Shown: positions 4,033-62,175, counted from the first letter of the stretch. The stretch: DNA of 64,000 nucleotides from Candidatus Magasanikiibacteriota bacterium (GCA_030650025.1 JAUSEN010000008.1:1164-65163), one strand, 5' to 3'. Numbers and translations: made by a program. Notes: generated by a model not told the origin, from the letters alone.

Positions 4033-4383
4033 TTAGATAAATTCTATCACGGCTGTCTGGCTGCCATCCCCTTTACGCGGGCCGAGCATGGTCAACCTGG
4101 TGTAGCCGCCTTTCCGATCTTTATAGCGTGGGCCCAAAACTTCCATCAGCTTCTTGACAGCTTTATCAGTATGGAGATCAGCCCGGAGCAGGCGGCGAGC
4201 CGCCAGCGTATTATTCTTGGCCGACGTTACCAGCCTTTCCACTCGGCTCTGCGCGGCTTTCGCTTTCGCCTTGGTAGTTTTAATTTTTTCGTGCAAAATC
4301 AAGCTCTCGGCCAAATTGCGAAGCAAGGCCGTGCGCGGCCCAACCTTCCGATCTAGAGTAATTTTCTTTTTTTGATGCCGCAT
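4033..4383 (-). CDS. rplQ: 50S ribosomal protein L17
   Basis: MRHQKKKITLDRKVGPRTALLRNLAESLILHEKIKTT... matches the L17 N-terminus. Start trimmed to the ATG at 4383; the track ORF extends into the shared leader repeat. Confidence 0.9.
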   Translation of the reverse strand: MRHQKKKITLDRKVGPRTALLRNLAESLILHEKIKTTKAKAKAAQSRVERLVTSAKNNTLAARRLLRADLHTDKAVKKLMEVLGPRYKDRKGGYTRLTMLGPRKGDGSQTAVIEFI

Positions 4384-4430
4384 ACGATTTGACAAAATCG
4401 TGCCGCGCAATGTCCTTTGAAGCGCGGCGC
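4384..4430 (-). promoter_or_regulatory. Conserved two-hairpin 5' leader motif directly abutting the rplQ start codon
   Basis: Minus strand reads GCGCCGCGC-TTCAAAGGACATT-GCGCGGCAC (hairpin 1), then CGATTT-TGTC-AAATCG (hairpin 2), then T-ATG. A near-identical copy is upstream of rpsM and a compensated copy upstream of mraZ. TAAATTAAATAAT lies just 5'. Confidence 0.5.
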
Positions 4431-6406: not shown

Positions 6407-6793
6407 TTAAGTTTTTTGCCCGTCGGGTTTGCGGCCGCTACCCATGGTCTTGCGAACATTGCCCCTAACCGTGCGGGAGTTAGTTTTGGTGCGCTGGCCG
6501 CGAACTGGCAAATGCTTCATGTGGCGAATGCCGCGGTAGCTCTTGGTATCTTTCAAAGTTTTGATATTACTCATTATTTCGCGGCGCAAATCGCCTTCGG
6601 TCTTAAAATTCTTCTCAACATATGCCCGCAGGGTATCTTCTTGTTCATTGGTCAAATCCTTGGTGCGGATATTGCCGTCAATCTTAGTAGCCACTAAGAT
6701 TTTTTTTGCCAGCGTTGCGCCAATGCCAAAAATATAACGCAGTGAAAACTCGATCTTCTTTTCCTCTGGTATGTTAGTACTGGCAATACGCAT
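6407..6793 (-). CDS. rpsM: 30S ribosomal protein S13
   Basis: [25 protein letters not shown]... Start trimmed to the ATG at 6793; the track ORF extends into the leader repeat. Confidence 0.9.
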
Positions 6794-6840
6794 ACGATTT
6801 AACAAAATCGTGCCGCGCAATGTCCTTTGAGGCGCGGCGC
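6794..6840 (-). promoter_or_regulatory. Second copy of the two-hairpin leader motif, abutting the rpsM start
   Basis: GCGCCGCGCC-TCAAAGGACATT-GCGCGGCAC-GATTTTGTTAAATCG-T-ATG. TTAGATTAAATTAA lies immediately 5'. Confidence 0.5.
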
Positions 6841-11878: not shown

Positions 11879-13132
11879 TTATTTAATCACTCCCCCGCCT
11901 AAACACGCCCCGTTATTGTAAAACACCGCGAATTGCCCGGGCGTAACCGCGCGCTCTGGCTTTGCAAAATGAACGATAACGAGATTCCTCGTCGGCCTTC
12001 GGCCTCGCTCGGAATGACAACGAACAATGCACTCCTGCAATATCTGGCGATGGCGTAGGCGTACCTGGCATTTTAACGGAAATTGAGGTTTCTGACAAAT
12101 CCAATTAACGCCCGTAACCACAGCTTCTTTGGAAAACAAAAGCAGGTCATCTTCATAGCCAACAACCAATTCATTGGTTCTAATATTTTTAGCGACCACA
12201 TACAAAGGCCGATTCCCCTCTCCTTCGCAAAGGAGAGGGCGAGGGTGAGGACTCGCCAATCCCAAATGCCTCTGACCAATCGTATAAAACGCCAGACCAT
12301 CGTGTTTACCGACAACAATTCGCTGTAGGGGCGGGGTTACCCCGCCCTTACCGTACGACATTATAATCTTTCCCGGTTTATGTTTTATTCTTTTCTCCAA
12401 AAATTCTTTCATCGGCACTTCGCCAATAAAACAAATGCCCATGCTCTCGGCTTTATCCGCGACTGGCAAGCCAAATTTCTTAGCTAATTTCCTGACTTCT
12501 GGCTTAGTATATTCGCCCACGGGAAATAGAGTTTTAGATAACTGCTTCTGGTTTAGCTGGTGCAAAAAATATGTTTGGTCTTTATTTTTGTCTTTGGCTT
12601 CGAGAAGATGAACCAGACCTCCCCCAAACCCCTCCTTTGCGAAGGAGGGGGGTCGAGCTCCCTCTCCATCGCAATGGAGAGGGCGGGGGGTGAGGACTCG
12701 TCTCGCATAATGCCCGGTCGCCAAATAATCAAAACCCAATTCTTCTGCCTTTTTCAGCCAACTCCCAAATTTAATAAATTTATTGCACATCACATCCGGG
12801 TTCGGCGTCCGCCCCTGCCGGTATTCCGCGAACATGTAATCCAAAACATCGCGTTTATATTCTTTAACAAAATTCAGTTTCAAAATCGGAATATTTAATT
12901 GCGCGGCCACGCGCACAGCGTCGCGGTAATCCGGAACATAACAAGACTGCGTCTGTTGTAGTGGCCCGGCATGCCTGGCCACTACGTTTTCGCCGTCATC
13001 ATCGTAATTAATCATAAAAGCCGCCGTGACATTATATCCGGCTTTAACGAGGAGCGCGGCGGCTACGGCCGAGTCCACCCCACCACTAAGCGCCACTAAA
13101 ACTTTTATTTTTTTATTAAACTTTATTTTCAC
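11879..13132 (-). CDS. mnmA: tRNA 2-thiouridine(34) synthase MnmA carrying four in-frame palindromic-element insertions
   Basis: PP-loop SGGVDSAV, ...LATGHYARR..., KDQTYFL, YTIGQR, TPGQFAVFY. At 417 aa it is about 50 aa longer than canonical MnmA. The extra segments map exactly onto DNA palindromes; see findings. Confidence 0.9.
   Translation of the reverse strand: MKIKFNKKIKVLVALSGGVDSAVAAALLVKAGYNVTAAFMINYDDDGENVVARHAGPLQQTQSCYVPDYRDAVRVAAQLNIPILKLNFVKEYKRDVLDYMFAEYRQGRTPNPDVMCNKFIKFGSWLKKAEELGFDYLATGHYARRVLTPRPLHCDGEGARPPSFAKEGFGGGLVHLLEAKDKNKDQTYFLHQLNQKQLSKTLFPVGEYTKPEVRKLAKKFGLPVADKAESMGICFIGEVPMKEFLEKRIKHKPGKIIMSYGKGGVTPPLQRIVVGKHDGLAFYTIGQRHLGLASPHPRPLLCEGEGNRPLYVVAKNIRTNELVVGYEDDLLLFSKEAVVTGVNWICQKPQFPLKCQVRLRHRQILQECIVRCHSERGRRPTRNLVIVHFAKPERAVTPGQFAVFYNNGACLGGGVIK
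11981..12019. repeat. Half MITE-like element (GAGATTCCTCGTCGG-CCTTCGG-CCTCGCTCGGAATGACA) in-frame inside mnmA
   Basis: Encodes CHSERGRRPTRNL in MnmA. A reverse-complement copy is at 15666-15704, and an intergenic copy within 21090-21193. Confidence 0.6.
12215..12257. repeat. Palindrome CCCCTCTCCTTCGCAAAGGAGAGGG plus CGAGGGTGAGGACTCG tail, in-frame inside mnmA
   Basis: Encodes ...SPHPRPLLCEGEGNRPL.... A second, duplicated copy is at 12628-12704. Confidence 0.6.
12321..12344. repeat. Palindrome AGGGGCGGGGTAACCCCGCCC(C)T in-frame inside mnmA; identical in sequence to the intergenic terminator hairpin at 62143-62175
   Basis: Encodes GKGGVTPPLQ, inserted just before the conserved ...HDGLAFYTIGQR. 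Confidence 0.6.
12628..12704. repeat. Tandem palindromes CCCCTCCTTTGCGAAGGAGGGG and CCCTCTCCATCGCAATGGAGAGGG plus CGGGGGGTGAGGACTCG tail, in-frame inside mnmA
   Basis: Encodes RPLHCDGEGARPPSFAKEGFGGG, inserted between the conserved GHYARR and LLEAKDKNKDQTYFL. Confidence 0.6.
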
Positions 13133-13149
13133 AAATAATTAACAACACT

Positions 13150-13782
13150 TTACAAACTTACTGGCTTAATTTCTTTTTTTAATAACTTGACCTGATACTC
13201 ATTTATCGGGCGCATTAAATTTTGATCATTGGCCATTTGGCGGGCCTTATTTGTTATTAGCCAGTTATACATATCATACTTAAACCGAAAATCACTTCTT
13301 AAAGCCAAATAATCATTTTTAAAAAATATTTTCGCTCTTTTCACTCCAATATTTCCTAAGGCGTCTAATTTATCCGCATCACGCAATATAATCGCTTCTT
13401 GGTACTTATCCGCCGCGTTATTATAGTGGTACCGTACCGCATACAACAAAATTATTTTTTCTTCTTTGGTAAGAAGCGAAAAAATTTTATCTTTCCTAAA
13501 CCACTCTCGGCAAAGTTTATACGACAACTCGTGATGAGTATTGGTGGAATTATTTTTCGCGTGCGAGCCCTTTTTTTCTAGAGTTCTGCCCACATCGTGG
13601 AGTACTGCCGCGAGTTCACACAAAAATATATTTGCTTTCACCGCTTTAGCGATGACAATCGCATTTTTTACCACCCGCGCCACGTGGTCATAACCATGCG
13701 CTGGGACTGGAGTAACTTTAAACAAAGCTTTAACTTTAATGTTTACCTCTCTAACAATTTGTTTTTGAATTTTTGTATACAT
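13150..13782 (-). CDS. HD-domain phosphohydrolase
   Basis: HGYDHVARV ... AAVLHDVGR ... RDADKLDALG (H..HD..D motifs). Start set at the ATG at 13782. Confidence 0.7.
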   Translation of the reverse strand: MYTKIQKQIVREVNIKVKALFKVTPVPAHGYDHVARVVKNAIVIAKAVKANIFLCELAAVLHDVGRTLEKKGSHAKNNSTNTHHELSYKLCREWFRKDKIFSLLTKEEKIILLYAVRYHYNNAADKYQEAIILRDADKLDALGNIGVKRAKIFFKNDYLALRSDFRFKYDMYNWLITNKARQMANDQNLMRPINEYQVKLLKKEIKPVSL

Positions 13783-13894
13783 AATAACCAGATTATATAT
13801 GAAACAGCCAAATATTTCAAGATATCCCGCCATAGGCGGATTGTTAACTGACACAAAATTTGCCTCGCTTATGCTCGCAAATTTAGGTCGTTAA

Positions 13895-13930
13895 CAAAAA
13901 AAATCCGGCAGCCTTAGGCTACCGGATCTA
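13895..13930 (-). terminator. Intrinsic terminator after the zinc-ribbon gene
   Basis: Minus strand: ATCCGGTAGCCTAAGGCTGCCGGAT followed by TTTTTTTGTT. Confidence 0.6.
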
Positions 13931-13942
13931 AAATTTTTATTT

Positions 13943-14269
13943 TTAGCCCTGGTTGCGTCGCGCCATCATGCAAGATTTGCAGTAGACGGGGCGATCACCG
14001 GTTGGTTGGAAGGGCAATTCAGTGATTGCCATGCCGCACTGTCCGCAGGTTAAATTAACCTGGAACATTTGGCGCGGGCCGCGGCTCATGCCGCCACCCA
14101 TTCCTCCACCCATACCACCACCGCGGGTTTGGCGGAAAGCCCGATTGCAGTCGCTGCAATAAACGGGGCGGTCGCCAGACGGCTGAAACGGCAGCTGTGA
14201 AATGTGGGCCCCGCACTTAGCGCAGGTTAAATCCACATCGTACATCTGGCGGTCATTGCCATATGCCAT
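13943..14269 (-). CDS. Small protein with two tandem CxxC-x17-CxxC zinc-ribbon repeats separated by a (GGGM)3 linker
   Basis: Two copies of LTC(A/G)xCGxxIxxLPFQPxGDRPVYCxxC; linker GGGMGGGMGGGM. Confidence 0.6.
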   Translation of the reverse strand: MAYGNDRQMYDVDLTCAKCGAHISQLPFQPSGDRPVYCSDCNRAFRQTRGGGMGGGMGGGMSRGPRQMFQVNLTCGQCGMAITELPFQPTGDRPVYCKSCMMARRNQG

Positions 14270-14286
14270 ACGTGTGTGTTCTGTTT

Positions 14287-14366
14287 GGTTCCCAAAATGT
14301 TGTTTGAGATATTTTGATTATTCGACCCCCAGTTTACTTTTAGTAAACCAGGACTATTTTGGGAAC
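14287..14366. promoter_or_regulatory. Nested inverted repeats upstream of the zinc-ribbon gene: outer GGTTCCCAAAAT...ATTTTGGGAAC, inner GTTTACTTTTAGTAAAC
   Basis: 11/11 outer arms about 57 bp apart; 7-bp inner palindrome. Lies in the 158-bp gap between 14269 and 14428. Confidence 0.35.
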
Positions 14367-14427
14367 TTTGTTATTACGCTGTTGCCCAAATTTATTGAGA
14401 TTAGTATAGCATAAAAATCCGGCTTTG

Positions 14428-14880
14428 TCAAATGCCTCTGGCATTCTGAACCGCCTCGGTTACTTCTTGCAGAGCCCCCGTGCCAACACTAGCCAAAACA
14501 GCGGCCTCTTTAACTGCTTTTTTAAGATCATACTTATTAGGAAAAACAGCAAAACTACGCCTTAAAAATATAATTGTGTTCGCGCGCAATGGGTCTTTAA
14601 TTAAGTTACTCTTTAATCCAGTTACTAAATCTCTTACCTTATTAAGCTCGTCTAACAAATCCTGAATTCTCTTCGCCTCTCCGCCCTTAGTATCAGGGAG
14701 AACGTCCAAACCTTGTTGTTGTAAAATTCTTAATTTATGCTCTATCTGTTCCAAAGACGACCCCAAGAATCCCTTCTCTAAAATTTCGCGCGCCGAATGA
14801 GAAAGCATCAACTTGTCTGGAGCGGCCGCGTCTCTTTTTACGCCTGGTTCCCGACCGCCTCCTTGTGTGTGAGTCCTCAT
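14428..14880 (-). CDS. Hypothetical protein
   Basis: 150-aa ORF with no recognisable motifs. The start may be the internal ATG at ~14808. Confidence 0.35.
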   Translation of the reverse strand: MRTHTQGGGREPGVKRDAAAPDKLMLSHSAREILEKGFLGSSLEQIEHKLRILQQQGLDVLPDTKGGEAKRIQDLLDELNKVRDLVTGLKSNLIKDPLRANTIIFLRRSFAVFPNKYDLKKAVKEAAVLASVGTGALQEVTEAVQNARGI

Positions 14881-14920
14881 AGATAAGCAAAGCTTGAAAT
14901 TGCGTCGGTCTTCGCAAAAA

Positions 14921-14948
14921 GAAAACTACAGTTTTCTTTTTGACTCAT
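14921..14948. terminator. Bidirectional intrinsic terminator downstream of the PPDK_N gene
   Basis: GAAAACTACAGTTTTC hairpin flanked by A-run/T-run (caaaaaGAAAACTacaGTTTTCtttttg). Confidence 0.55.
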
Positions 14949-14964
14949 CCCTAGCAATTATAAA

Positions 14965-16032
14965 TTAATTAGTAGTTCGATTTAAAGTCGTAATCGGCCG
15001 GCTCTGGGTGATATAAAATTTACTCCCGACTTTGGCCCATTCAATATCACAGGGGAAGCCATAATGCTTCTCAATATTTATAAAAATCTTAGCCGCTTCG
15101 ATAATTTCTTTGCCCGATAATTTTTGTTTTGTCCCTTCGCTCTCGCTAATATTTCCCCACTCATTGCGCTTCCCCTCTCCGCTATCTACTAACAAATCGC
15201 TTTTGGCGGAACGCGCCAACGCGTTCCCTACAAGTTTTTTTCCTACTAATTTTCGGGTCTGCGTCGCCACATTAATATCAAGAATGCTAAGCTCTGATTT
15301 ACTAACAATATAACTATCAGGAGTAATCTGACCGCCCACAATCGCTTCACCGAGGCCAAAACCGGCTTCTATTATCATCTGATCTCTGTCTTCGGTAACC
15401 GGATGCACGGTAAAAGCAATGCCTGACACTTCAGACTGTACCATAGTTTGCACTACCACCGCAACCGAAACATAGTGGTCGATTAAGTTCTTCTCGTGGC
15501 GGTAAAAAATTGCCCGAGGTGTGAATAGCGAAGACCAGCACTCTTTAACCCGCTCTACTACCTGCTCGGCTGGCGTATTTAAATATGTTTCCAGTTCCCC
15601 GGCCCAGCTCGCGACCGCCGAATCCTCCGCCGTCGCACTGCTCCGGACCGCCACCAAAAAATCATTGTCATTCCGAGCGAGGCCGGAGGCCGACGAGGAA
15701 TCTCCCGAAAGTTTAGCATGAGCTGCCAAAATTTCTACTTCTAAATCTTTGGGCATGGCATGGTCGTGAATCGCGTCCCGAATCACCGCGCTCGCTTTAT
15801 CAATCGAATTTACATCCGCCACGTTCACCTCTTTGAGCCGCGCACTAATTTCAGCATTCAAATCAGTTTCTTCTAAAAATCTATCAAAGGCGCTTGCGAG
15901 CACCACAAACCCGGGCGGGACAGGAATCCCGGTATTCGCCATCTCACCCAAACTGGCGCCTTTGCCACCCGCCTCGGCGACATTGTTTTTAGAAATTTCA
16001 TTGAAGAATTTTAGATGGGGCATACAACTCAA
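14965..16032 (-). CDS. PEP/pyruvate-binding (PPDK_N-type ATP-grasp nucleotide-binding) domain protein with an in-frame MITE insertion
   Basis: GGKGASLGEM ... GIPVPPGFVV ... FLVAVRSSATAED ... AG. The inserted segment SGDSSSASGLARNDND is encoded by the element at 15666-15704. Confidence 0.75.
   Translation of the reverse strand: MSCMPHLKFFNEISKNNVAEAGGKGASLGEMANTGIPVPPGFVVLASAFDRFLEETDLNAEISARLKEVNVADVNSIDKASAVIRDAIHDHAMPKDLEVEILAAHAKLSGDSSSASGLARNDNDFLVAVRSSATAEDSAVASWAGELETYLNTPAEQVVERVKECWSSLFTPRAIFYRHEKNLIDHYVSVAVVVQTMVQSEVSGIAFTVHPVTEDRDQMIIEAGFGLGEAIVGGQITPDSYIVSKSELSILDINVATQTRKLVGKKLVGNALARSAKSDLLVDSGEGKRNEWGNISESEGTKQKLSGKEIIEAAKIFINIEKHYGFPCDIEWAKVGSKFYITQSRPITTLNRTTN
15666..15704. 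repeat. Half MITE-like element (TGTCATTCCGAGCGAGGCCGGAGGCCGACGAGGAATCTC) in-frame inside the PPDK_N gene
   Basis: Reverse complement of the 11981-12019 family. Encodes SGDSSSASGLARNDND immediately before the conserved FLVAVRSSATAED. Confidence 0.6.
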
Positions 16033-16043
16033 AAATTAAAACC

Positions 16044-17459
16044 CTAAACCTTTTTTGCAGTACCCTTTACTGGATCAATCTCTACCAAATCTCCATTTTT
16101 AAATACTGTGGTCACGGTTTTCGTTCCAACAATGCATGGAATGTTTAATTCTCGGCTTGTAATAGCCGCATGCGAGGTGAGCCCACCGGTATCTGTTAAA
16201 ACTGCACAGGCCTTTTTCATAGCAAAAACATATTCCGGGCTAGTCATCGGCGCCACCAACACCTCACCTTCCTTAAAACTTTCTACCTTAGTTGGATCAA
16301 ATAAAATATGCACGACCCCCTTAATCATGGCGCCACTACCTTTACTCGCCACCGCCCCCCTTACTTCCGACGCTCCAACCGCAGATTTTTCTGTGCCATA
16401 CAAATTCCAATAAAAATCTACTTCCTGTGAGGATAATTCCCGGCAATCGTGGAAAAACCAAACGCCAAAACCATTGGCTCGTTTTTTTAATTCCTCGTGC
16501 AAATCTTGACCACTTATAATTTCGGCAATTTGATTATGCCACAAATTGTGTAACTCATCAAAACTATATTTATAACGACGCGCCACTTCGCTGGTCAAAA
16601 CATCAATATAATGCAAAATAATGAATATACTTTTTTTGCGTTCATCTTGCCACTCGATACCATACGTAATCGCCTTAGCTATAGCCATAATCTCTGGCGG
16701 TAAATTATATTGTGCTTGAAAACTGGCCTTGCGTTTAGCCGTTTCTGCTAATTTTGTTTTAACGTTACTTTCAAAATCAGTCGGGATTTCTTTTTTGTGT
16801 TCAGCAAACCAGGACTCAGACAAAATTTGGGTACCAGCATAGCTATTTTTTAACCAGTAAAATTGTTCAACGTGCTTTTTAAGATCGCTCGTGTTAACTA
16901 GGGCAATTTCTTCTTCCTGATAAAAAGAAATTTGCTCTGGCGCGGTTAACACTTCAAGAGCCGAACGCAATTCATCTTGGTCCGTAATAATAGGCTTTAA
17001 TTTTTCTGTCAGATACTCGGTCGAACCGTAATTTGCTAATTCGGGAATCGACCCAGCCACCCAAAATTTAAGATATAAATCATTAAAATTATTCCACAAC
17101 TTTAACAGCTCGCTATCGCTAGCAGCTGATAGTTTAAGCGAACCAATATGCTTTTCTAAGCTAGCGATCTCCCGATCATAACCCTGCCATTCTTTATATA
17201 TGCCCTCACGAGAAATCGAGGGTAACATGTACTTAACAAAAACTCGCTGCCCGGCCGCGACTACGTCTGGTGTGTTGTTAACCCAAAACGAACGACCGTC
17301 CTTAAACATCCATAAAGTCTCCGACCAATTTTCAGCAAACTTGGCACGAAAGGCTTGGTAGTGAGTCTCCACAAACGTAGAAACATACAAAAATTTGCCT
17401 GGCACTGGCCCCCAACGAAAAATATCGCCTTTGGAATCAAACGGAGTTTTATTTTGCAT
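16044..17459 (-). CDS. Protein with an unknown ~370-aa N-terminal domain and a C-terminal PEP-utilising-enzyme mobile (phosphohistidine swivel) domain
   Basis: C-terminus ...VLVAPMTSPEYVFAMKKACAVLTDTGGLTSHAAITSRELNIPCIVG carries the PEP-utilizers catalytic His motif. Overlaps the upstream HD gene by 11 nt. Confidence 0.7.
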   Translation of the reverse strand: MQNKTPFDSKGDIFRWGPVPGKFLYVSTFVETHYQAFRAKFAENWSETLWMFKDGRSFWVNNTPDVVAAGQRVFVKYMLPSISREGIYKEWQGYDREIASLEKHIGSLKLSAASDSELLKLWNNFNDLYLKFWVAGSIPELANYGSTEYLTEKLKPIITDQDELRSALEVLTAPEQISFYQEEEIALVNTSDLKKHVEQFYWLKNSYAGTQILSESWFAEHKKEIPTDFESNVKTKLAETAKRKASFQAQYNLPPEIMAIAKAITYGIEWQDERKKSIFIILHYIDVLTSEVARRYKYSFDELHNLWHNQIAEIISGQDLHEELKKRANGFGVWFFHDCRELSSQEVDFYWNLYGTEKSAVGASEVRGAVASKGSGAMIKGVVHILFDPTKVESFKEGEVLVAPMTSPEYVFAMKKACAVLTDTGGLTSHAAITSRELNIPCIVGTKTVTTVFKNGDLVEIDPVKGTAKKV

Positions 17460-18057
17460 ATGATTTATTAATTAATTCTATACTATTCCATTGTGGGTCG
17501 TGTGGTAAACCCATTTCCTGTCTGACCGCTTGCACCCGCTCGAAATATTTTCGGCAGGCCTCTAGAGTTTTTTCGTAAGCATAAGCATCATGGGTCCCTT
17601 CGTATGTAGAACAATCAAGAACATCGGCGTCTTTTACTAATTCCGCATATGGATTAGTCGAAACCACATGCTTATCGCTATGCTCATAAATCGCCTCGAC
17701 TATAATTTTGATTTCTTCTCCACTAAACTTATTAATCGACCGCAGATACTCTTCGGCAATTACAGCGCCTTTATGCGCGTGATCTTTGGCATCTCCCGAA
17801 ACATTTACGGCAATGTCATGCATCACACACACAATTGCTCCGATTTCGGGTCTTAAACCTCGCTTTTCTGCTAGCACCCGACCAAATTGGGCAACCGACG
17901 AACTGTGTTTAAGCTCAAATACTTTCCCCCAAACACGGCTCTCATCCGGAATTTTACTACAGCTTTCGAGTATCACTTCAACAACGTGGCGCTCTACCCG
18001 CTCAGCGCGCGACACGTTCTCGCCTTGAAAATGGGTGTAGGGGTTGGTGTTAGACAT
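17449..18057 (-). CDS. HD-domain protein
   Basis: H-x(n)-HD-x(n)-D pattern: ...HSSSVAQFG...VCVMHDIAVNVSG...KDADVLD. Confidence 0.55.
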   Translation of the reverse strand: MSNTNPYTHFQGENVSRAERVERHVVEVILESCSKIPDESRVWGKVFELKHSSSVAQFGRVLAEKRGLRPEIGAIVCVMHDIAVNVSGDAKDHAHKGAVIAEEYLRSINKFSGEEIKIIVEAIYEHSDKHVVSTNPYAELVKDADVLDCSTYEGTHDAYAYEKTLEACRKYFERVQAVRQEMGLPHDPQWNSIELINKSYAK

Positions 18058-18185
18058 ATTAAAAGATAAATTATTTTACACTCTAGAATAGCATTTTTTG
18101 GGTATTTCGTAAATCATCCGGCCACTCTCCGGTTGATTATAATCAAACTATTGGCTAACGCTAAGCTAAAATTTATAAAAAAAAT

Positions 18186-18206
18186 GTTGTAAGAGTCTTA
18201 CAACAT
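18186..18206 (-). terminator. Intrinsic terminator after the TrmB-like gene
   Basis: Perfect hairpin GTTGTAAGAgtTCTTACAAC followed on the minus strand by TTTTTTTTATAAATTTT. Confidence 0.6.
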
Positions 18207-18217
18207 TACCTGAAAAG

Positions 18218-19036
18218 CTACTTTTTAAAATTTCTCTGATCAGGTGGATATGGCTTATTTTTAATCTCATCTTTGGCATGCAACCACCCAAACTCAAAAA
18301 TTCGACGTTGTGACTCGGCAATCAGTGGGTCAACTACCGTAACTGCTCTATTTTCCTCTGGCAAAGCAATGCTAAAACTATTGTCAAAAATAGCCATAAA
18401 AGCGAACGAGGAAAATTCTTTAGGATCAATAAAACGCGCCTTCATGGGCGATGCTTTAGGATTTTTAATATACTTCATTTCCACATATTTTCTGGCTTCA
18501 GAAGTATCCATGAAAATAAACCGGGTCGGAATTTGTTTAGCAAATTTTTGAGGAAAATAAAAATTTTCTAAATAATCCTCAAACGGTTTAGCAAAAGCTT
18601 CGATTTTGGTCCACTCTAAAACTTCGGTTTTAGTATCTAACACAGCCGAAGCCCAATTCCGCAGTCCTTCTACTCCTTCATAATATATAACGTTAGTTTT
18701 AACAGGCTTTGGATTTTTACTAATTTCTTTAAGCTCCGGTACCAAAAATTCCAAAGCCCGCTCTTCGCGTTTTACTTGCTCCCCATGTTTACTAACGATA
18801 TCGTAAAGTTTAAATGGCGGGAAAGCCGCAAAACATCTTTTATTTTTTACAAATTCTTCATGCAAAAAACCTTTATCAATCAAGGATTTTATTAACCCAT
18901 AAGCACTCACACGCTTCTGCTTAGCTCTGCCTGCAATTTTTTGCACCGACTCAGGCCCTAATTCTAAACAAGCGACGTATACTTTAGCTTCAGCCAAAGT
19001 CAAATTAAATTTTTCCAATTCTTTAAAAATATTCAT
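18218..19036 (-). CDS. TrmB-family transcriptional regulator (N-terminal winged HTH)
   Basis: LTLAEAKVYVACLELGPESVQKIAGRAKQKRVSAYGLIKSLIDKGFL matches the TrmB HTH pattern. Confidence 0.65.
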   Translation of the reverse strand: MNIFKELEKFNLTLAEAKVYVACLELGPESVQKIAGRAKQKRVSAYGLIKSLIDKGFLHEEFVKNKRCFAAFPPFKLYDIVSKHGEQVKREERALEFLVPELKEISKNPKPVKTNVIYYEGVEGLRNWASAVLDTKTEVLEWTKIEAFAKPFEDYLENFYFPQKFAKQIPTRFIFMDTSEARKYVEMKYIKNPKASPMKARFIDPKEFSSFAFMAIFDNSFSIALPEENRAVTVVDPLIAESQRRIFEFGWLHAKDEIKNKPYPPDQRNFKK

Positions 19037-19066
19037 GAAAATGGCCGTAATTAATTCCGAACCAAA

Positions 19067-20998
19067 TTACCCACCAACATTCGCCACTGTATTCGGAGGC
19101 AAGTTCTGCGGCGGGCGGGGCGGTTTAGACGGCTCGGGCACAAACCCCAAATCTAATGGCGCTGGCACATCGACTGGCGGGGACGGAGTTGTTGATTTTT
19201 GGGCACTGACAATATCAATTGATATTGGCTTTTGAACAAGTGGCGCGGGCGCTGTCAAAGTACGCAAAGAAACGCCGGGCGCGGCCGGGTTGCCGAGTAA
19301 TACCGGAGTCCCTCCGCCTGGCGGCATACCCCCGCCCCCTCGGTTCCTTTTACGCTTACGCTTTTTTTCTTGACCAGGCCCACCTGGTACGCTGGGAGCA
19401 GAGTTAAATTGAGGTGGGCGAGAGAAACTAGCGAGCGGCTTAGGTGTTGCAACAGGGGGCTTAGGCAGAGACGAATTCAGCGATTTTTGGGTTATTGGCA
19501 AAGGCGCCGGAGCCGATCTCACCGCCACCGGCAGACTGGCTGTTGACTTATTATTAGTAGAAGCAGAATTAGAAACAGGCAGAGAGGCAAGCGCGGCGAC
19601 TTTGGGTGGAATGTCACCAAACATCGCTTCGTCTTCATCAACTTCTAAATTACCAGCTTCGTCCCCACCCGTGACTAGCATGCCGCTCCAACGCGCGATT
19701 TTATCTTCAATCTTCTCGCGCGGCAGGGCATAGCGCTCGCGCGATACTCGAATCACCTTTTCCGTACTGTCAGTCGGGGTGCCAATTGGCGGCAGGGTCA
19801 AGGCGCTAAACGGCCGCGAAGCCACGCCATCAATCATCAGTTTTAAATAAACATGGTACTTAGGCAAATTAACTAAATCTTCTTCTATAAACGTCGGCGC
19901 GAATTCTTTGGCTAAAATTTCGGCGTCACTCGAACCCACTCTAAAAGTAATCATGGTGCCAACGTTGCCAACCACCGCGGCCAACACTTCCTCTTCCAGC
20001 TGTTCCATGTACTGGTGCGCCATGGTTAAGTCCAGCCGATACTTACGCGCTTCGGACAAAATATTCGCGAAGCTTTCGTTGGCAAAATTTTGGAACTCGT
20101 CTACATACATAAAAAAATCTTTGCGCTCGGTCTCGGGGATATCCACCCGCTCCATAGCCGCCAGCTGGATCTTGGTAATCAGCATACCGCCGAGGAGCCG
20201 AGAATTATCCTCGCCGATCCGGCCTTTAGAAAGATTCATTATAAAAATTCTTTTATTATCCATTATCTCGCGAATATCGATGCGAGATTTAACTTGCGCC
20301 ACAATGTTGCGAATAACCGATGCCGACAAAAACTGACCGATTTTATTTTGGATCGGCGCCACGGCCTCGGTCCGAAACTTCTCGGCATAATTAGCGAACT
20401 CCGTGGTCCAAAAAGCTTTCACGACCGGGTCCTTGGAATTATTAACCACGCGGCGGCGATAGTCCGCGTCCGCTAGCATTCGATTAATGCCAAGTAATGT
20501 CGTCCCCGGGAAATCTAAAAGCGCGAGTATTGTGTTATTCAAAATATATTCCATACGTGCGCTCCACACATCCGGCCAGATTTTTTTAAACACGCCCATG
20601 AGGCCACTCGCCACCAAATGCTTTTGCTCGGGCCGGACAGTTTCTAAAATATTAAACCCAATCGGAAAATCAATGTCCGCCGGATTAAAATAAACCACGT
20701 CATTAATGCGGTTCGCCGGAATGTAATTAATAATTTTTTCCGCGAAGTCCCCGTGCGGGTCTACCAAGCCCACCCCATGCCCGGCGTAAATATCGTTCAA
20801 AACCATATTTTCCAAAATCGTGGTTTTGCCCATGCCGGTTTTACCCACCACATAAACATGCCGGCGGCGATCGTCGATTTTAATGCCAAACTTCCGATTT
20901 TGATTCCGAAAATTAGTTAAACCAAAAAAATTAATCTCTGGGTTAGATTTTATAGTGCCTGCTTGCGGCTCCAAGCCACCACCTTGTTCTTCACTCAT
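19067..20998 (-). CDS. VirD4/TraG/TraD-like type IV coupling-protein ATPase with a Pro-rich low-complexity C-terminal tail
   Basis: Walker A VVGKTGMGKTT; Walker B FFMYVDEFQNF; RKYRLDLTMAHQYMEQL (TraG-D_C-like motif). C-terminal ~200 aa is P/S/A-rich with KKRKRKRNRGGGG. Confidence 0.6.
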   Translation of the reverse strand: MSEEQGGGLEPQAGTIKSNPEINFFGLTNFRNQNRKFGIKIDDRRRHVYVVGKTGMGKTTILENMVLNDIYAGHGVGLVDPHGDFAEKIINYIPANRINDVVYFNPADIDFPIGFNILETVRPEQKHLVASGLMGVFKKIWPDVWSARMEYILNNTILALLDFPGTTLLGINRMLADADYRRRVVNNSKDPVVKAFWTTEFANYAEKFRTEAVAPIQNKIGQFLSASVIRNIVAQVKSRIDIREIMDNKRIFIMNLSKGRIGEDNSRLLGGMLITKIQLAAMERVDIPETERKDFFMYVDEFQNFANESFANILSEARKYRLDLTMAHQYMEQLEEEVLAAVVGNVGTMITFRVGSSDAEILAKEFAPTFIEEDLVNLPKYHVYLKLMIDGVASRPFSALTLPPIGTPTDSTEKVIRVSRERYALPREKIEDKIARWSGMLVTGGDEAGNLEVDEDEAMFGDIPPKVAALASLPVSNSASTNNKSTASLPVAVRSAPAPLPITQKSLNSSLPKPPVATPKPLASFSRPPQFNSAPSVPGGPGQEKKRKRKRNRGGGGMPPGGGTPVLLGNPAAPGVSLRTLTAPAPLVQKPISIDIVSAQKSTTPSPPVDVPAPLDLGFVPEPSKPPRPPQNLPPNTVANVGG

Positions 20999-21089
20999 AT
21001 AAATACCTTAAAATAGCGTTAGGACTTAACACTTTTATTATACGCTAAAACTAACCCTCCGACAACAACGAACATATGTAACAATTTGC

Positions 21090-21193
21090 TGTCATTTCGA
21101 CCCCGCCTCTGGCGGGGAGAAATCTCTATCACAATTGTGAAATGGACAGAGATTCCTCGTCGGTCGCCATAGGCGACCTCGCTCGGAATGACA
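21090..21193. mobile_element. About 104-bp MITE-like element with TGTCATT...AATGACA termini and two internal GC hairpins
   Basis: tgtcatttcgaCCCCGCCtctgGCGGGGagaaatctct...gagattcctcgtcGGTCGCCataGGCGACCtcgctcggaatgaca. Intergenic, between the coupling-ATPase and AMMECR1 genes. Confidence 0.55.
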
Positions 21194-21197
21194 GCGC

Positions 21198-21773
21198 CTA
21201 ATCTTCAGAGAATACTTCTACCTGGTAAGTATAAACCGTGAGCCCTGGTTTTTTCCACTCCTCCGGTTCCAAACCTGCCTTCATACAAAGCGCCGTCAAA
21301 AAATTGCTTTTCTCGAGCATTTCATCCCAGACTTGGGGCAGAAACGTCGCGTTCTTCTCCCCTCTTTCCACCACCACGCCGTCCACCCCCACTCGGAGTT
21401 TATTAAACAAATCTTCCGGGGAATCAAACTCCAAAACTTTCGGATCGGTCAAAACCGAAATTTCAATATTGACATCTGGCAGTTCCTCTTTAGTAACCGG
21501 AAAAAATCGCGAATCCTCAAACGCCGCCGCGTAAGCATTTTCTAAAATATCCAAATACAGCGGACGCCGCGCCTCTAAACTGCCCATACACCCTCTTAAT
21601 TCCACTAAATCTTTTTTAAGCGTCACAAAACACGCCCGCTTGATTTTTACGCTCTCCCCGCTCGCCTCGATCTCGCTCTCTTTAAGTTTCAATTTTTTTC
21701 CAGTTTCTAAAAAATGCGCAATACTCTCGCGCGCTAATTTTAAAAGCCAGGTTTGTTCTTCCCGAGTAAACAT
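21198..21773 (-). CDS. AMMECR1-domain protein
   Basis: ...RACFVTLKKDLVELRGCMGS... is the AMMECR1 signature. Confidence 0.8.
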   Translation of the reverse strand: MFTREEQTWLLKLARESIAHFLETGKKLKLKESEIEASGESVKIKRACFVTLKKDLVELRGCMGSLEARRPLYLDILENAYAAAFEDSRFFPVTKEELPDVNIEISVLTDPKVLEFDSPEDLFNKLRVGVDGVVVERGEKNATFLPQVWDEMLEKSNFLTALCMKAGLEPEEWKKPGLTVYTYQVEVFSED

Positions 21774-28787: not shown

Positions 28788-28817
28788 AGTAGGGGCATGA
28801 TATATCATGCCCCTACT
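28788..28817. repeat. Perfect 30-nt palindrome AGTAGGGGCATGATATATCATGCCCCTACT
   Basis: Core GGGGCATGATATATCATGCCCC is identical to 37239-37260. No flanking T-run on either strand here. Confidence 0.6.
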
Positions 28818-36515: not shown

Positions 36516-36965
36516 CTAAACTCCTAGTTCCGCCATTTTTTCCGCGATCGCGTTGCTTTCAGCCTCGGTACGGCTCTTATAATGTTCCCACTCGGGTTTA
36601 GCCCAAATTTCTAAGCGGCTGTACAGCCCGGCAATAACTACTTCTTTTTTTAAACCGGCAAAAACTCGCAAATATTCCGGGAGCATGGCGCGACCCTGCT
36701 TATCAATCGGGATATCCATGGCGCCCGCTAGCATTAAACGCGCAAACGCGCGGCTATTAGCTTGAGCCATAGGGAGTGCGGCCAATTTCTCGGCGAGCTT
36801 ACCCCACTCGGCCTTGGTGAAAACAAACAAGCAATTATCAAGACCGCGGGTCACCACTGCCCCTTTTTTTAAGTCATTCCGGAATTTGGCGGGCAGGGCC
36901 ACACGCCCTTTATCGTCTAGCGTGTGCGAAAATTCTCCTATGAACATATGAATTGACGAATTCAT
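36516..36965 (-). CDS. mraZ: Transcriptional regulator MraZ
   Basis: Two MraZ repeats: ...MFIGEFSHTLDDKGRVALPAKFR... and ...DKQGRAMLPEYLR.... Start at the first ATG after the leader hairpin (36965). An alternative ATG at 36947 gives the canonical MFIGEF N-terminus. Confidence 0.85.
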   Translation of the reverse strand: MNSSIHMFIGEFSHTLDDKGRVALPAKFRNDLKKGAVVTRGLDNCLFVFTKAEWGKLAEKLAALPMAQANSRAFARLMLAGAMDIPIDKQGRAMLPEYLRVFAGLKKEVVIAGLYSRLEIWAKPEWEHYKSRTEAESNAIAEKMAELGV

Positions 36966-37036
36966 GCCCGATTCAACAGAATCGTGCCGAGCAGTGTCCT
37001 TTGAAGCTCGGCTCGCATTCCTTTGAAGCGCGGCGC
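36966..37036 (-). promoter_or_regulatory. Third, compensated copy of the two-hairpin leader motif (plus a partial tandem extra copy) abutting the mraZ start
   Basis: Minus strand: GCGCCGCGC-TTCAAAGGAATGCGA-GCCGAGC-TTCAAAGGACACT-GCTCGGC-AC-GATTCTGTTGAATCG-GGC-ATG. Stem 1 is GCCGAGC/GCTCGGC here versus GCGCCGCGC/GCGCGGCAC at rplQ and rpsM. The loop is conserved. Confidence 0.5.
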
Positions 37037-37234
37037 TAGTGAGTAAAGTAGTAAGACAAGCATTTTCACCACTCTTCCCCACTTATAACCATTTTACACC
37101 ACTTAAAAACACTAGTCAACACTTAAAACCAGAGTTATCCACAGTCCTTCGGTCGCCTAAGGCGACCTTCGGACTGCAAGCGCTTTTTTGCGTGTCTAAG
37201 ACGAATAATATGCGCAGACGATAAAATAAAAAAA

Positions 37235-37260
37235 CAGGGGCATGATATATCATGCCCCTG
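37235..37260. terminator. Bidirectional intrinsic terminator (CAGGGGCATGATATATCATGCCCCTG) downstream of the MBL-fold gene
   Basis: Perfect palindrome flanked by AAAAAAA 5' and TGAATTTTTTTATT 3'. The minus strand reads hairpin plus TGTTTTTTTATTTT. Confidence 0.7.
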
Positions 37261-37296: not shown

Positions 37297-38715
37297 TTAG
37301 ACCCTAACCTCTAAGCCCACGTTTACCACTGTGGCTTTCACCCCCAAATCCTCGGTTATTCTTTTGGCGAGAGCTTCCGAAGCCACCGGGTCGCCGTGGT
37401 TTAAATAAACCTTTTTTGGAGTCGTAGCGCCTCCGCCAATCCAATCAAGGAGTTTATCCTGATCGCCGTGCGCGGACAGCGCTCCCACCATTTTTACTTT
37501 GCATCTTACCTCGACTCTCTCGCCAAGTATGTCTACAAAACGCTGGCCGTCCACAATTTTCCGCCCCAGCGTCCCTGCGGACTGGTAGCCAATGATGAGC
37601 AAAGTATTTTTGGGGTCTGACAAATAGCGCAGAGCGTGGAACACAATGCGCCCGCCGTTCATCATACCCGCGCCCGCGATAATAATTTTACAACCCGGCG
37701 TGTGGTTAATCTTCATGGATTCTTCGCGCAAATGAGTGAGCGTGAGGCCGGGAAAATTAAATAAATCATCGCCCGCTTTAAAATATTTAGCGGCTTCAGC
37801 GTCGTAATACTCGGGATATTTTTCGTAAACTTTAATAGCATCAATTGCCAAAGGCGAATCTAAAAAAATCGGAACCCGAGGCAGTTTCTTCTTACGGTCA
37901 ATCAAATCATTTAATTCATATAATAACTCTTGAGTGCGCTCGAGCGAAAAAGACGGAATCATAACCACGCCACCCCGCTCTATCCCCTCGCGAATCATAT
38001 TTTCGATTACTTCTTGCCGCTCGTGCACACTCTCGTGCAAGCGATTGCCATATGTCGATTCGCAAATCAGGGCGTCTAGCCCCCCGGGCAATTTTTCGGT
38101 ATCACGGAGTATCGGCACCTCAACGTTGCCGACGTCCCCACTAAACACAATTCGCTTCCCCTCACCGGCAATTTCAATAAACGCCGAACCAAAAATATGC
38201 CCCGCGTCGTGAAACTTAACGACAACCTCACCACTAGTGTCATTCCCGCGTAAGCGGGAATCTAACTCTCTTGACTTCAAGATCCCCGCTTTCGCGGGGA
38301 TGACAATCTCCTCTCCATATTCCACTCCCACAAACATGCTCATCACGCTAGCGATGTCGCTCTCTGCATACAAAATTGGCGTCTTTAATTTGCGATTGTT
38401 ATAAGTCATGACGTTGAGCGCGTCGTCCAAAATTAGCTGCGCCAGCTCCACGGTTGGTTTGGTCGCGTAAATCTTGCCCGCAAAACCATTTTTCGTTAAG
38501 AGCGGCAAACGCCCCACGTGGTCCAAATGCGCGTGGGTCACAAACACGGCCGCGATGGCTTTGTGATCATACCCGAGCGGTTCTGAATTTCTCTTCTCAA
38601 TTTCCGGACTGCCCTGATGCAGGCCACAATCAACCAAAAACTTCTGGCCGCCAACCTCAATCATACTATTAGAACCCGTCACTTCCCGCGCCGCCCCAAA
38701 AAACGTAATTTTCAT
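37297..38715 (-). CDS. MBL-fold metallo-hydrolase (beta-CASP / RNA-metabolising type) with an in-frame MITE insertion
   Basis: HxHxDH motif VFVTHAHLDHVGRLP; ...FHDAGHIFGSAFIEI.... The inserted segment IPAKAGILKSRELDSRLRGNDTSGE is encoded by the element at 38239-38305. Confidence 0.75.
   Translation of the reverse strand: MKITFFGAAREVTGSNSMIEVGGQKFLVDCGLHQGSPEIEKRNSEPLGYDHKAIAAVFVTHAHLDHVGRLPLLTKNGFAGKIYATKPTVELAQLILDDALNVMTYNNRKLKTPILYAESDIASVMSMFVGVEYGEEIVIPAKAGILKSRELDSRLRGNDTSGEVVVKFHDAGHIFGSAFIEIAGEGKRIVFSGDVGNVEVPILRDTEKLPGGLDALICESTYGNRLHESVHERQEVIENMIREGIERGGVVMIPSFSLERTQELLYELNDLIDRKKKLPRVPIFLDSPLAIDAIKVYEKYPEYYDAEAAKYFKAGDDLFNFPGLTLTHLREESMKINHTPGCKIIIAGAGMMNGGRIVFHALRYLSDPKNTLLIIGYQSAGTLGRKIVDGQRFVDILGERVEVRCKVKMVGALSAHGDQDKLLDWIGGGATTPKKVYLNHGDPVASEALAKRITEDLGVKATVVNVGLEVRV
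38239..38305. repeat. Complete ~67-bp MITE-like element (TGTCATTCCCGCGTAAGCGGGAATC...GATCCCCGCTTTCGCGGGGATGACA) inserted inside the MBL-fold CDS
   Basis: TGTCAT/ATGACA termini. Two internal hairpins: ATTCCCGCgtaaGCGGGAAT and ATCCCCGCtttcGCGGGGAT. The host ORF remains open. Confidence 0.6.
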
Positions 38716-38976
38716 GTAAATCTTCGTTATTTAATCTAAAAAATAAACTTAACTCTATATATTAGAGCTCTTTGAATATTATACCAACCGCCATCTCAAA
38801 ACACAATTCGAAACACCTCCTCAAGCCGCCCAGTGTGCATAACTTCACACGTATGTACTTTACGCATAATCCTGTCATCTTGAGCGTAGCGAAAGATCTA
38901 AGCGTTTTATATTTTGGCGAATTGACTTAGATAAACTTAAATCAAGTGATAATTCTGCTATGAGAAATCCATACCG

Positions 38977-43275: not shown

Positions 43276-43291
43276 AATACCCCGTCATTGC

Positions 43292-43320
43292 GAGCCCCCG
43301 ACGCAGTCGGGGCAAAGCAA
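43292..43320 (+). terminator. Possible intrinsic terminator after lepA
   Basis: CCCCGACgcaGTCGGGG hairpin followed by CAAAGCAATTTTT. Weak T-run spacing. Preceded by a GTCATTGCGAGC MITE-like end. Confidence 0.35.
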
Positions 43321-43356
43321 TTTTTAAAAATTATAATTAATTTCTCAAATTTACTT

Positions 43357-62133: not shown

Positions 62134-62142
62134 ATATAGGGG

Positions 62143-62175
62143 CGGGGTTACCCCGCCCCTATATTTATTTTAAAA
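62143..62175. terminator. Bidirectional intrinsic terminator between rnh-like (+) and metK (-)
   Basis: TAGGGGCGGGGTTACCCCGCCCCTA followed by TATTTATTTT. The same palindrome occurs inside mnmA at 12321-12344. Confidence 0.7.

Follow-up and report, generated by a model that had tools for sequence, protein, structure and literature searches.

The 64-kb stretch of DNA analysed here, referred to throughout as the window, contains on its minus strand an open reading frame (14965-16032) encoding a 355-amino-acid, stand-alone PPDK_N protein (PF01326, an ATP-grasp nucleotide-binding domain), which was assigned by a domain profile search with an E value of 3.6e-92 and is 100% identical to one encoded in a Candidatus Magasanikbacteria MAG. 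Within this gene, and antisense to it, lies a 39-nt hairpin repeat unit, TGTCATTCCGAGCGAGGCCGGAGGCCGACGAGGAATCTC (15666-15704, plus strand), composed, in order, of a TGTC tag, ATTCC, the box GAGCGAG, a hairpin (GCC-GGA-GGC), the box CGACGA, GGAAT, and a CTC tail. Spanning 13 codons, the unit reaches from codon position 2 of Gly110 to codon position 1 of Asn123 and is read in frame with no stops, such that the host protein across the element is ...AKLSGDSSSASGLARNDNDFLVAVRSSATAED... and the segment G110-N123 is GDSSSASGLARNDN. The latter is encoded directly upstream of FLVAVRSSATAED, and the insert lies four residues ahead of the conserved VAVRSSATAED strand. Both the nature of the host and the intactness of its frame are therefore as stated in the preliminary description of this locus, which was made from the sequence alone. 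Direct reading of the sequence reveals that five of the six frames of the 39-mer are open; consequently, freedom from stops comes cheaply, and the property that counts for the host gene is that the length be a multiple of three.

An AlphaFold model of the host protein (mean pLDDT 77.8) places the insert between a helix (residues 95-115) and a strand (residues 127-133), with residues 113-123 falling below a pLDDT of 50. Judging from this model, the insert is a floppy loop, predicted to be disordered; the length of the loop varies among homologues. Given that the insert comprises 13 stop-free codons in a loop predicted to be disordered, it is most simply read as being translated through, yielding a hydrophilic 13-residue loop, for which the expected tryptic peptide would be LSGDSSSASGLAR.

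The 120 best homologues of the host protein (64-73% identical, self-match aside) were compared with it, 115 of which could be scored at the site. In 62 of the 115, ...ELDA is followed directly by EFVAVRSS within a linker fixed at 19 residues, and 53 (46%) are filled at exactly the same site with 10-41 extra residues. Three solved PEP synthase-type homologues likewise have gaps at the position of the insert. Taken together, the empty orthologues, the gaps in the solved homologues, and the low pLDDT values argue that the segment is extra, as had been proposed, and located in a loop, and no conserved segment occurs at this position. The inserts of the filled orthologues represent several repeat families, of either TGTC type or PxxGE type, including the family of the 39-mer itself (..DSS..ARND..), simpler relatives (DSRLRGND, ..AQND.., and ..VQDD..), and an unrelated proline/glycine-rich family (..SPSPxKGEG.. 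and ..PLIKGE..). On a neighbour-joining tree, filled and empty orthologues intermingle, with lone filled sequences occurring within otherwise empty clades.

At the DNA level, six filled and four empty orthologous genes were compared. The gene in the window and those at two other loci (L001 and L005) share the boxes GATTCCTCGTCG...CTCGCTCGGAATGACA around a central stem, the sequence of which differs among the three yet remains paired (GCC/GGC, TCCCGC/GCGGGA, and TCCCGTTCG/CGAACGGGA). All 28 box positions are identical in these three genes, as opposed to only 37-49% of their four-fold degenerate sites. Read from the sequences, this disparity would imply either that the box copies arose far more recently than the genes, or that the boxes are constrained at the DNA level. 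One further orthologue (L002) retains just the final 13 nt of a unit, and three others (L003, L127, and L129) contain units of a related subfamily. No target-site duplication or target motif was found at any junction compared between filled and empty orthologues, nor did any junction bear the signature of a clean insertion; between the most similar filled and empty orthologues, approximately 9 nt have been replaced, as opposed to a simple interruption of the sequence. Two orthologues, P0002 and P0007, which are 86% identical across the whole protein, are 100% identical downstream of the insert and clearly more divergent upstream, and their inserts differ.

Further copies are present within the window. 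A sister copy identical at 38 of 39 nt (11981-12019, minus strand), where shuffles of the window gave an expectation of 0, lies in sense orientation within mnmA (11879-13132, minus strand), encodes CHSERGRRPTRNL, and is read in a frame other than that of the PPDK_N copy; mnmA also contains two or more additional palindromic inserts, which belong to a different family. The conserved ends of the 39-mer, TGTCATTCCGAGCGAGG and CGACGAGGAATCTC, recur in a 45-nt unit (21149-21193, minus strand) that possesses both boxes and a longer hairpin (GTCGCC-TAT-GGCGAC). The latter is the right unit of an intergenic, head-to-head inverted pair of 104 nt (21090-21193), the left unit of which (21090-21126, plus strand) is diverged and has a compensatory variant of the outer stem (ATTTC/GAAAT) and the hairpin CCCCGCC-TCT-GGCGGGG. 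Three full units with identical boxes are thus found in 64 kb, compared with an expectation of 0-0.25. The preliminary description had recognized the 39-mer and had related it both to the oppositely oriented element in mnmA and to the intergenic pair; the copies, the single mismatch with mnmA, and the difference in reading frame uphold this view, and the term "half" is fair insofar as the 39-mer is one unit of a two-unit inverted element.

Units bearing a [T/C]GTC tag, an AT-starting stem, and a CTN tail number at least 11 in the window, compared with 3.8 in shuffles, and their outer stems covary. These include an intergenic head-to-head dimer of two further TGTC-tagged units (2351-2442; outer stems ATCTT/AAGAT and ATTCT/AGAAT), a head-to-head dimer of dRS3/NTS-like units, TGTCATTCCCGCGTAAGCGGGAATCTA and TGTCATCCCCGCGAAAGCGGGGATCTT (38238-38305), which is in frame within a 472-aa ORF (37297-38715, minus strand) and reads VIPAKAGILKSRELDSRLRGND, and two single intergenic units, one of which is TGTC-tagged (38873-38900, plus strand) and the other CGTC-tagged (43283-43324, plus strand; outer stem ATTGC/GCAAT). 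Four of the 11 are inside ORFs, namely those of mnmA and PPDK_N and the dimer in ORF 37297-38715. GTCATTCCG at 40949 was rejected as a chance match in coding sequence; a further match lies at 36873.

A family scan, conducted on one genome per species and requiring the two exact boxes 6-36 nt apart, identified at least 120 loci (labelled L), among which the invariance of the boxes is partly built in because exact boxes were required. The phyla represented among the matches listed are Patescibacteria, Acidobacteriota, Bacteroidota, Bacillota, Chloroflexota, Hydrogenedentota, Proteobacteria, Planctomycetota, and Zixibacteria, and these matches include three cultured Mucilaginibacter (Bacteroidota) and a Lachnospiraceae MAG. 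In CPR bacteria, in-frame exact-box copies are found in genes encoding LeuRS (L060, L107), QueA (L038), KsgA (L028), a UvrD-like helicase (L051), and a TsaE-like protein (L026), and an MnmA copy (L094) occupies the same site as that in the mnmA gene of the window. In-frame CPR copies are often dimers or accompanied by other units, and most CPR copies have an upstream partner tag. Across the family, units are 35-61 nt in length, and the distal hairpin varies from 3 to 9 bp or more.

The pattern seen in PPDK_N extends to MnmA, 120 orthologues of which display at least six loops with repeat-like extra residues; 28 are filled at the site of the window copy, and 52-53 at two other sites. Five of six intragenic single copies have lengths in the class 0 mod 3, compared with 4 of 15 copies that are not clearly inside genes, although copies are few and some are orthologous. 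In a full-text literature search, the box sequences were encountered only as primer coincidences, and a search for literature linking CPR lineages with REP or palindromic elements found nothing relevant.

Taken by itself as single-stranded DNA, the 39-mer folds weakly (-4.8 kcal/mol, z = 0.3), which is no better than shuffled sequence; the computed fold consists of an outer 5-bp stem, an internal loop, 4 bp, and a 3-nt loop. The 45-mer (z = -2.1) and the 37-mer (z = -5.0) fold significantly better, and the 104-nt dimer at 21090-21193 forms a single long hairpin (-27.6 kcal/mol, z = -5.3). Support for the hairpin character consequently comes from the family as a whole and not from the 39-mer copy alone. 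The matches listed contain 100 different central segments, which are specific to their lineages and in which pairing starts next to the boxes, with a mean of 3.0 contiguous Watson-Crick pairs compared with 0.45 in shuffled segments. In the same matches, mismatches are G-T-compatible on the TGTCAT strand in 48 cases versus 27 on the reverse, an excess that hints that the TGTCAT strand is the one that folds. Inspection of the sequence by eye indicates that the boxes could form tandem G-A pairs flanking a G-C pair on this strand. A likeness of the core to a hammerhead ribozyme or kink-turn was also considered by eye and rejected; there is a resemblance in the tandem G-A pairs beside a hairpin, but not in the invariant catalytic nucleotides. 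No Rfam family was matched by any unit, whether the whole window was searched at gathering thresholds or 11900-21300 at E <= 10, and the window contains no tRNA or tmRNA.

While no GIY-YIG gene is present in the 64-kb window, a motif search, together with a small profile derived from its hits, identified GIY-YIG ORFs in 10 of the at least 120 loci listed. In five of these ten, a single-domain GIY-YIG gene of approximately 100 aa lies within 0-299 nt of an exact-box unit (L012, L075, L033, L056, and L072). The gene in L012, which comes from a Magasanikbacteria genome, is bracketed by TGTC-tagged units, and in L075 a unit together with approximately 10 nt of its flank is repeated on both sides; L033 belongs to Alistipes, and L056 and L072 to Acidiferrales. 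All three proteins scanned against Pfam (L012, L075, and L056) matched PF01541. The neighbouring proteins agree with the neisserial nuclease SsnA in length and in the register of Tyr/Tyr/Glu, with Tyr7, Tyr17, and Glu64 of the L075 protein in the same register as Y6, Y17, and E64 of SsnA. They had no matches in NCBIfam and are weakly similar to UPF0213 structures.

Taking these lines of evidence together, we consider it probable that the 39-mer is a unit of the CGTC/TGTC-tagged REP superfamily, which overlaps with Ssn-related motifs, and that it has become fixed in the PPDK_N gene of a Candidatus Magasanikbacteria bacterium, a tiny groundwater organism. The TGTCAT strand would fold when single-stranded and, by analogy with the NTS/dRS3 repeats of Neisseria, the folded strand would serve as the recognition site of an Ssn-type GIY-YIG single-strand nuclease, the two boxes most likely forming the surface recognized by such a nuclease. 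Selection would then retain only those copies situated in tolerant loops and having a length divisible by three. Such a filter on loop and length would explain how one loop comes to hold different repeat families in 46% of orthologues, and the occurrence of the same pattern, with unrelated families, in a second protein (MnmA) favours a filter over sequence-specific targeting. The apparent insertion hot spot is, therefore, most simply explained as a selection filter.

The preliminary description had named the 39-mer a half-MITE, in which case a DDE transposase would recognize TGTCAT... terminal inverted repeats and the 39-mer would be the remnant left by loss of one arm. The 104-nt element at 21090-21193, with its inverted ends TG...CA and its folding as one long hairpin, accords with this interpretation, as does the insert in L127, which holds part of the dimer spacer (GGACAGA) as though it were a truncated dimer. 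However, target-site duplications are missing from every junction compared, no transposase (and hence none with matching ends) lies beside the copies in the window or in the loci inspected (the neighbours in L009 are housekeeping genes), single units are common with tag and tail fixed, and a superfamily of the same anatomy exists that has no associated transposase (PMC3733652). An origin as half of a MITE is thus unlikely; the TGTC tag, the A-T stem start, the CTC tail, and the tags-outside dimers instead constitute the anatomy of REP or Ssn motifs, and while the observation itself stands, TGTC-tagged REP or Ssn-type hairpin repeat is a better name than half-MITE. Mobilization by a RAYT, a Y1 tyrosine transposase of the IS200 type, as occurs with GTAG-type REPs and REPINs, would likewise account for short tagged hairpins, inverted dimers, and folding that is apparently strand-specific, but we regard it as highly improbable given that the tag is TGTC rather than GTAG and that CGTC repeats do not flank tyrosine transposase genes (PMC3733652). 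Moreover, the sole Y1_Tnp protein seen (L004) returned nothing by tblastn in the window or in any locus, and its gene is flanked by unrelated hairpins.

CPR bacteria are known for intervening sequences in their rRNA genes, and the 39-mer could by extension be removed from RNA or protein, leaving the mature enzyme without it. However, an insert of 39 nt is much smaller than any self-splicing intron or intein, and intragenic single copies are almost all stop-free multiples of three, a property needed only if they are translated, so that removal appears extremely improbable. Retention of the hairpin for a role in mRNA or transcription (a pause between folding units, or stability), with the peptide as a by-product, is suggested by the use of GC-rich palindromes of several unrelated families in the same inter-element loop of 46% of orthologues and by the same pattern in several MnmA loops. 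Yet the mRNA carries the pyrimidine-rich strand in PPDK_N and the other strand in mnmA, the folding energy of the 39-mer copy is close to nil, over half of the orthologues lack an insert, no Rfam family is matched, and SsnA does not interact with RNA of the same sequence (PMC11893778), all of which render such a role very unlikely. Finally, variation in length at this site among distant solved homologues might be taken to indicate a native, lineage-specific protein loop whose likeness to other loci is coincidental or convergent. This is effectively refuted, and carries next to no probability, in view of the 38/39-nt identity in an unrelated gene, in another frame and orientation and with a chance expectation of 0, the occurrence of the same boxes in at least 120 loci of other genomes, and the invariance of those boxes (28/28) between orthologues whose synonymous sites are near saturation.

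An extension of the preferred reading, that of a REP-type unit kept in tolerant loops, concerns recombination. In Magasanikbacteria and related CPR bacteria, Ssn-type repeats in essential genes might go beyond the role of tolerated passengers, in that single-stranded DNA entering the cell would be cut preferentially at them, so that they set the breakpoints of intragenic recombination, a proposal that we put forward as speculative and, on present evidence, rather doubtful. If it were true, new repeats would enter mainly at sites already occupied, which would explain the fast turnover of families at one loop. The relationship between P0002 and P0007 described above has the expected look of such a breakpoint, although a chimeric metagenome assembly at the repeat would look alike.

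For 25 years, palindromic inserts that preserve the reading frame have been a peculiarity associated with Rickettsia. Ssn, a partner protein of the CGTC-tagged repeats, was identified only in 2025. The data presented here suggest that the CGTC/TGTC superfamily is active in CPR bacteria, and they place an extended variant, which escapes the published SRM pattern, beside genes of the GIY-YIG type in Patescibacteria, Bacteroidota, and Acidobacteriota. The many closely related alleles, filled or empty, that public metagenomes contain could allow insertion and turnover to be observed. In practical terms, the repeats make CPR proteins longer and more diverse, give rise to spurious ORFs, and are likely sites of assembly chimeras.

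Among the closest known systems is the REP superfamily tagged with CGTC, and sometimes with TGTC or CCTC (Di Nocera, De Gregorio and Rocco 2013, PMC3733652). Its stem positions 1-2 are complementary A-T, its tail is short (consensus CCA), and its members occur mostly as head-to-head dimers with no associated transposase and do not flank tyrosine transposase genes; in families CGTC-1 to -4 the stem is 8-9 bp and the loop 4-5 nt, copies within ORFs are listed, and members are equated with dRS3 of Neisseria and with RPE-4 and RPE-6 of Rickettsia conorii (PMC3733652). In the window, the tag is TGTC in the 39-mer and nine other units and CGTC in that at 43283, and stems begin with AT (ATTCC...GGAAT, with the variants ATTTC/GAAAT, ATCTT/AAGAT, ATTCT/AGAAT, ATTGC/GCAAT, and ATCCCCGC/GCGGGGAT). 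All three dimers (2351-2442, 21090-21193, and 38238-38305) have their tags outside. As in the superfamily, dimer spacers are structured, copies are many and dispersed, some lie wholly within ORFs and add residues, and no transposase flanks them in the window or in the surroundings (up to 8 kb) of the copies. Units in the window have a 3-nt tail, which is CTC, CTA, or CTT against the CCA consensus. A departure from the superfamily is the composite stem of the 39-mer (5 bp, a purine-rich two-box internal loop, and a variable distal hairpin), which lies outside the 8-9 bp stem and 4-5 nt loop of CGTC-1 to -4. The dRS3-like units at 38238-38305, by comparison, fall within the CGTC stem-loop definition (8 bp, 4-nt loop). 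The host, a CPR bacterium, also belongs to a group outside the published survey (PMC3733652).

Another close system is that of Ssn, in which the dRS3-containing NTS repeat, CGTCATTCCCGCGMAVGCGGGAATCYRG, and SRM hairpins flank genes for single-domain GIY-YIG Ssn proteins of approximately 94 aa that belong to cd10448, GIY-YIG_unchar_3 (Nat Commun 2025, PMC11893778). SsnA cuts single-stranded DNA beside the repeat, is inactive on RNA or duplex DNA, and lowers transformation by repeat-carrying DNA; cleavage needs three bases upstream of the palindrome, binding needs a C just after it, and residues Y6, Y17, and E64 have been mutated (PMC11893778). The words "intragenic" and "Patescibacteria" are absent from the main text of that study (PMC11893778). 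In terms of the published SRM pattern, HGTCWY N0-2 YYVSBRH N0-5 WNVSBRG N0-2 RNCYNB (PMC11893778), the head of the 39-mer (TGTCAT) fits HGTCWY and its tail (ATCTCC) fits RNCYNB. A C directly follows the palindrome (GGAAT-C-TC), one strand is apparently favoured for folding, and units flank a GIY-YIG gene of approximately 100 aa on one or both sides at the five loci named above. The 39-mer, 45-mer, and 37-mer nevertheless all fail the full pattern, the 39-mer because its stem and unit are too long, whereas 38278-38305 is an SRM match and 38238-38265 is an NTS with three mismatches.

Two further systems share some of these features. RPEs are palindromic repeats found in frame in many unrelated housekeeping genes at fold-compatible positions (review, PMC10969869), and the inserts described here are likewise in frame in protein-coding genes at such positions. 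However, RPEs are approximately 150 bp in length with a conserved peptide (PMC10969869), compared with 39 nt and 13 residues here; the host lineage is CPR, free-living or epibiotic, rather than Rickettsia, one loop is reused by several repeat families, and the link between the 39-mer family and RPE-4 and RPE-6 is the CGTC assignment of Di Nocera et al. With the GTAG REP/REPIN and RAYT system, the present units share short tagged hairpins, inverted dimers, probable recognition as single-stranded DNA on one strand, and a small dedicated nuclease gene flanked by repeats, but differ in their tag (TGTC, not GTAG) and in the associated protein, a GIY-YIG nuclease taking the place of an HUH/Y1 transposase. 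Measured against these systems, the event in PPDK_N is of a known kind, unusually frequent in the Candidatus Magasanikbacteria lineage; the element and the kind of event are already known, and what is new is the structural variant, the CPR host group, and the repeated use of the same loops of housekeeping genes.

Two orthologues of the host PPDK_N protein (PF01326; gene at 14965-16032, minus strand), P0002 and P0007, hold different inserts at the insertion site. Between this site and the C terminus their identity is 100%; upstream of the site, divergence is clearly higher, and whole-protein identity is 86%. Either the repeat marks a recombination breakpoint, or the metagenome assembly is chimeric here. 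The PPDK_N domain is a stand-alone protein in the window (neighbouring gene at 16044-17459, minus strand) and in loci L001, L002, L006, L128, and L130 from other genomes, and is adjoined by one or several genes whose sole domain is the PEP-utilizers mobile domain (PF00391). Relatives have up to 4-5 consecutive PF00391-only paralogues, often together with Fic, HAD, or acylphosphatase genes. Directly downstream of the PPDK_N stop codon lies one arm of an inverted repeat of ~80 nt (arms at 917-996 and 14883-14966, 88-90% complementary, with 14 kb between them).

The mnmA gene (11879-13132, minus strand), which carries a sister copy of the 39-nt element, encodes 417 aa in the window versus ~355-366 aa in the shortest orthologues. 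It also contains three palindromic inserts of other families, namely CCCCTCTCCTTCGCAAAGGAGAGG (12215-12238, reading ..PLHCDGEGA..), TAGGGGCGGGGTTACCCCGCCC (12326-12350, reading ..PLLCEGEGN..), and CCCCTCCTTTGCGAAGGAGGGGGG (12629-12652, reading ..PPSFAKEGFGGG..); a second copy of TAGGGGCGGGGTTACCCCGCCC is located at 62137-62161.

Several further repeats were observed in the window. At 150-360, a different repeat is present in approximately three tandem copies, in the order GCGCTACCGCGGAGTTTACCCG, variable GC hairpin, GGGCTACCCGGGAATA; its hairpin GTCGCCTAAGGCGAC occurs again at 37146-37167 and reappears as GTCGCCATAGGCGAC within the right unit of the intergenic dimer (21149-21193, minus strand). 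A 52-nt direct repeat, with small inverted repeats of its own, has copies at 4379-4430, 6789-6840, and 36963-37014 (96% and 77% identity to the reference copy), and a 24-nt perfect palindrome, AGGGGCATGATATATCATGCCCCT, is found as two identical copies 8.4 kb apart (28791-28814 and 37236-37259).

A head-to-head dimer of units resembling the Neisseria repeats dRS3/NTS (38238-38305) lies in frame (VIPAKAGILKSRELDSRLRGND) within a 472-aa ORF (37297-38715, minus strand) whose product, judged by eye, looks like a metallo-beta-lactamase/beta-CASP nuclease. One unit fits the published Ssn-related hairpin motif (SRM) pattern (PMC11893778), and the other is 3 mismatches away from the NTS consensus of Neisseria.

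Units with the two boxes of the 39-nt element were also seen in other lineages. In a Flavobacteriales MAG (L046, 2906-3226), three units with exact matches to both boxes are spaced 137-139 nt apart with conserved flanks, the array being a tandem repetition of the exact-box unit plus ~93 nt, and several other contigs of this MAG hold the same unit. Mucilaginibacter isolates (L015, L039, L045, and L117) possess a between-box segment of 25-26 nt ending in CC(C)WGG; this segment forms no obvious hairpin, in contrast to the hairpin found in most other lineages.
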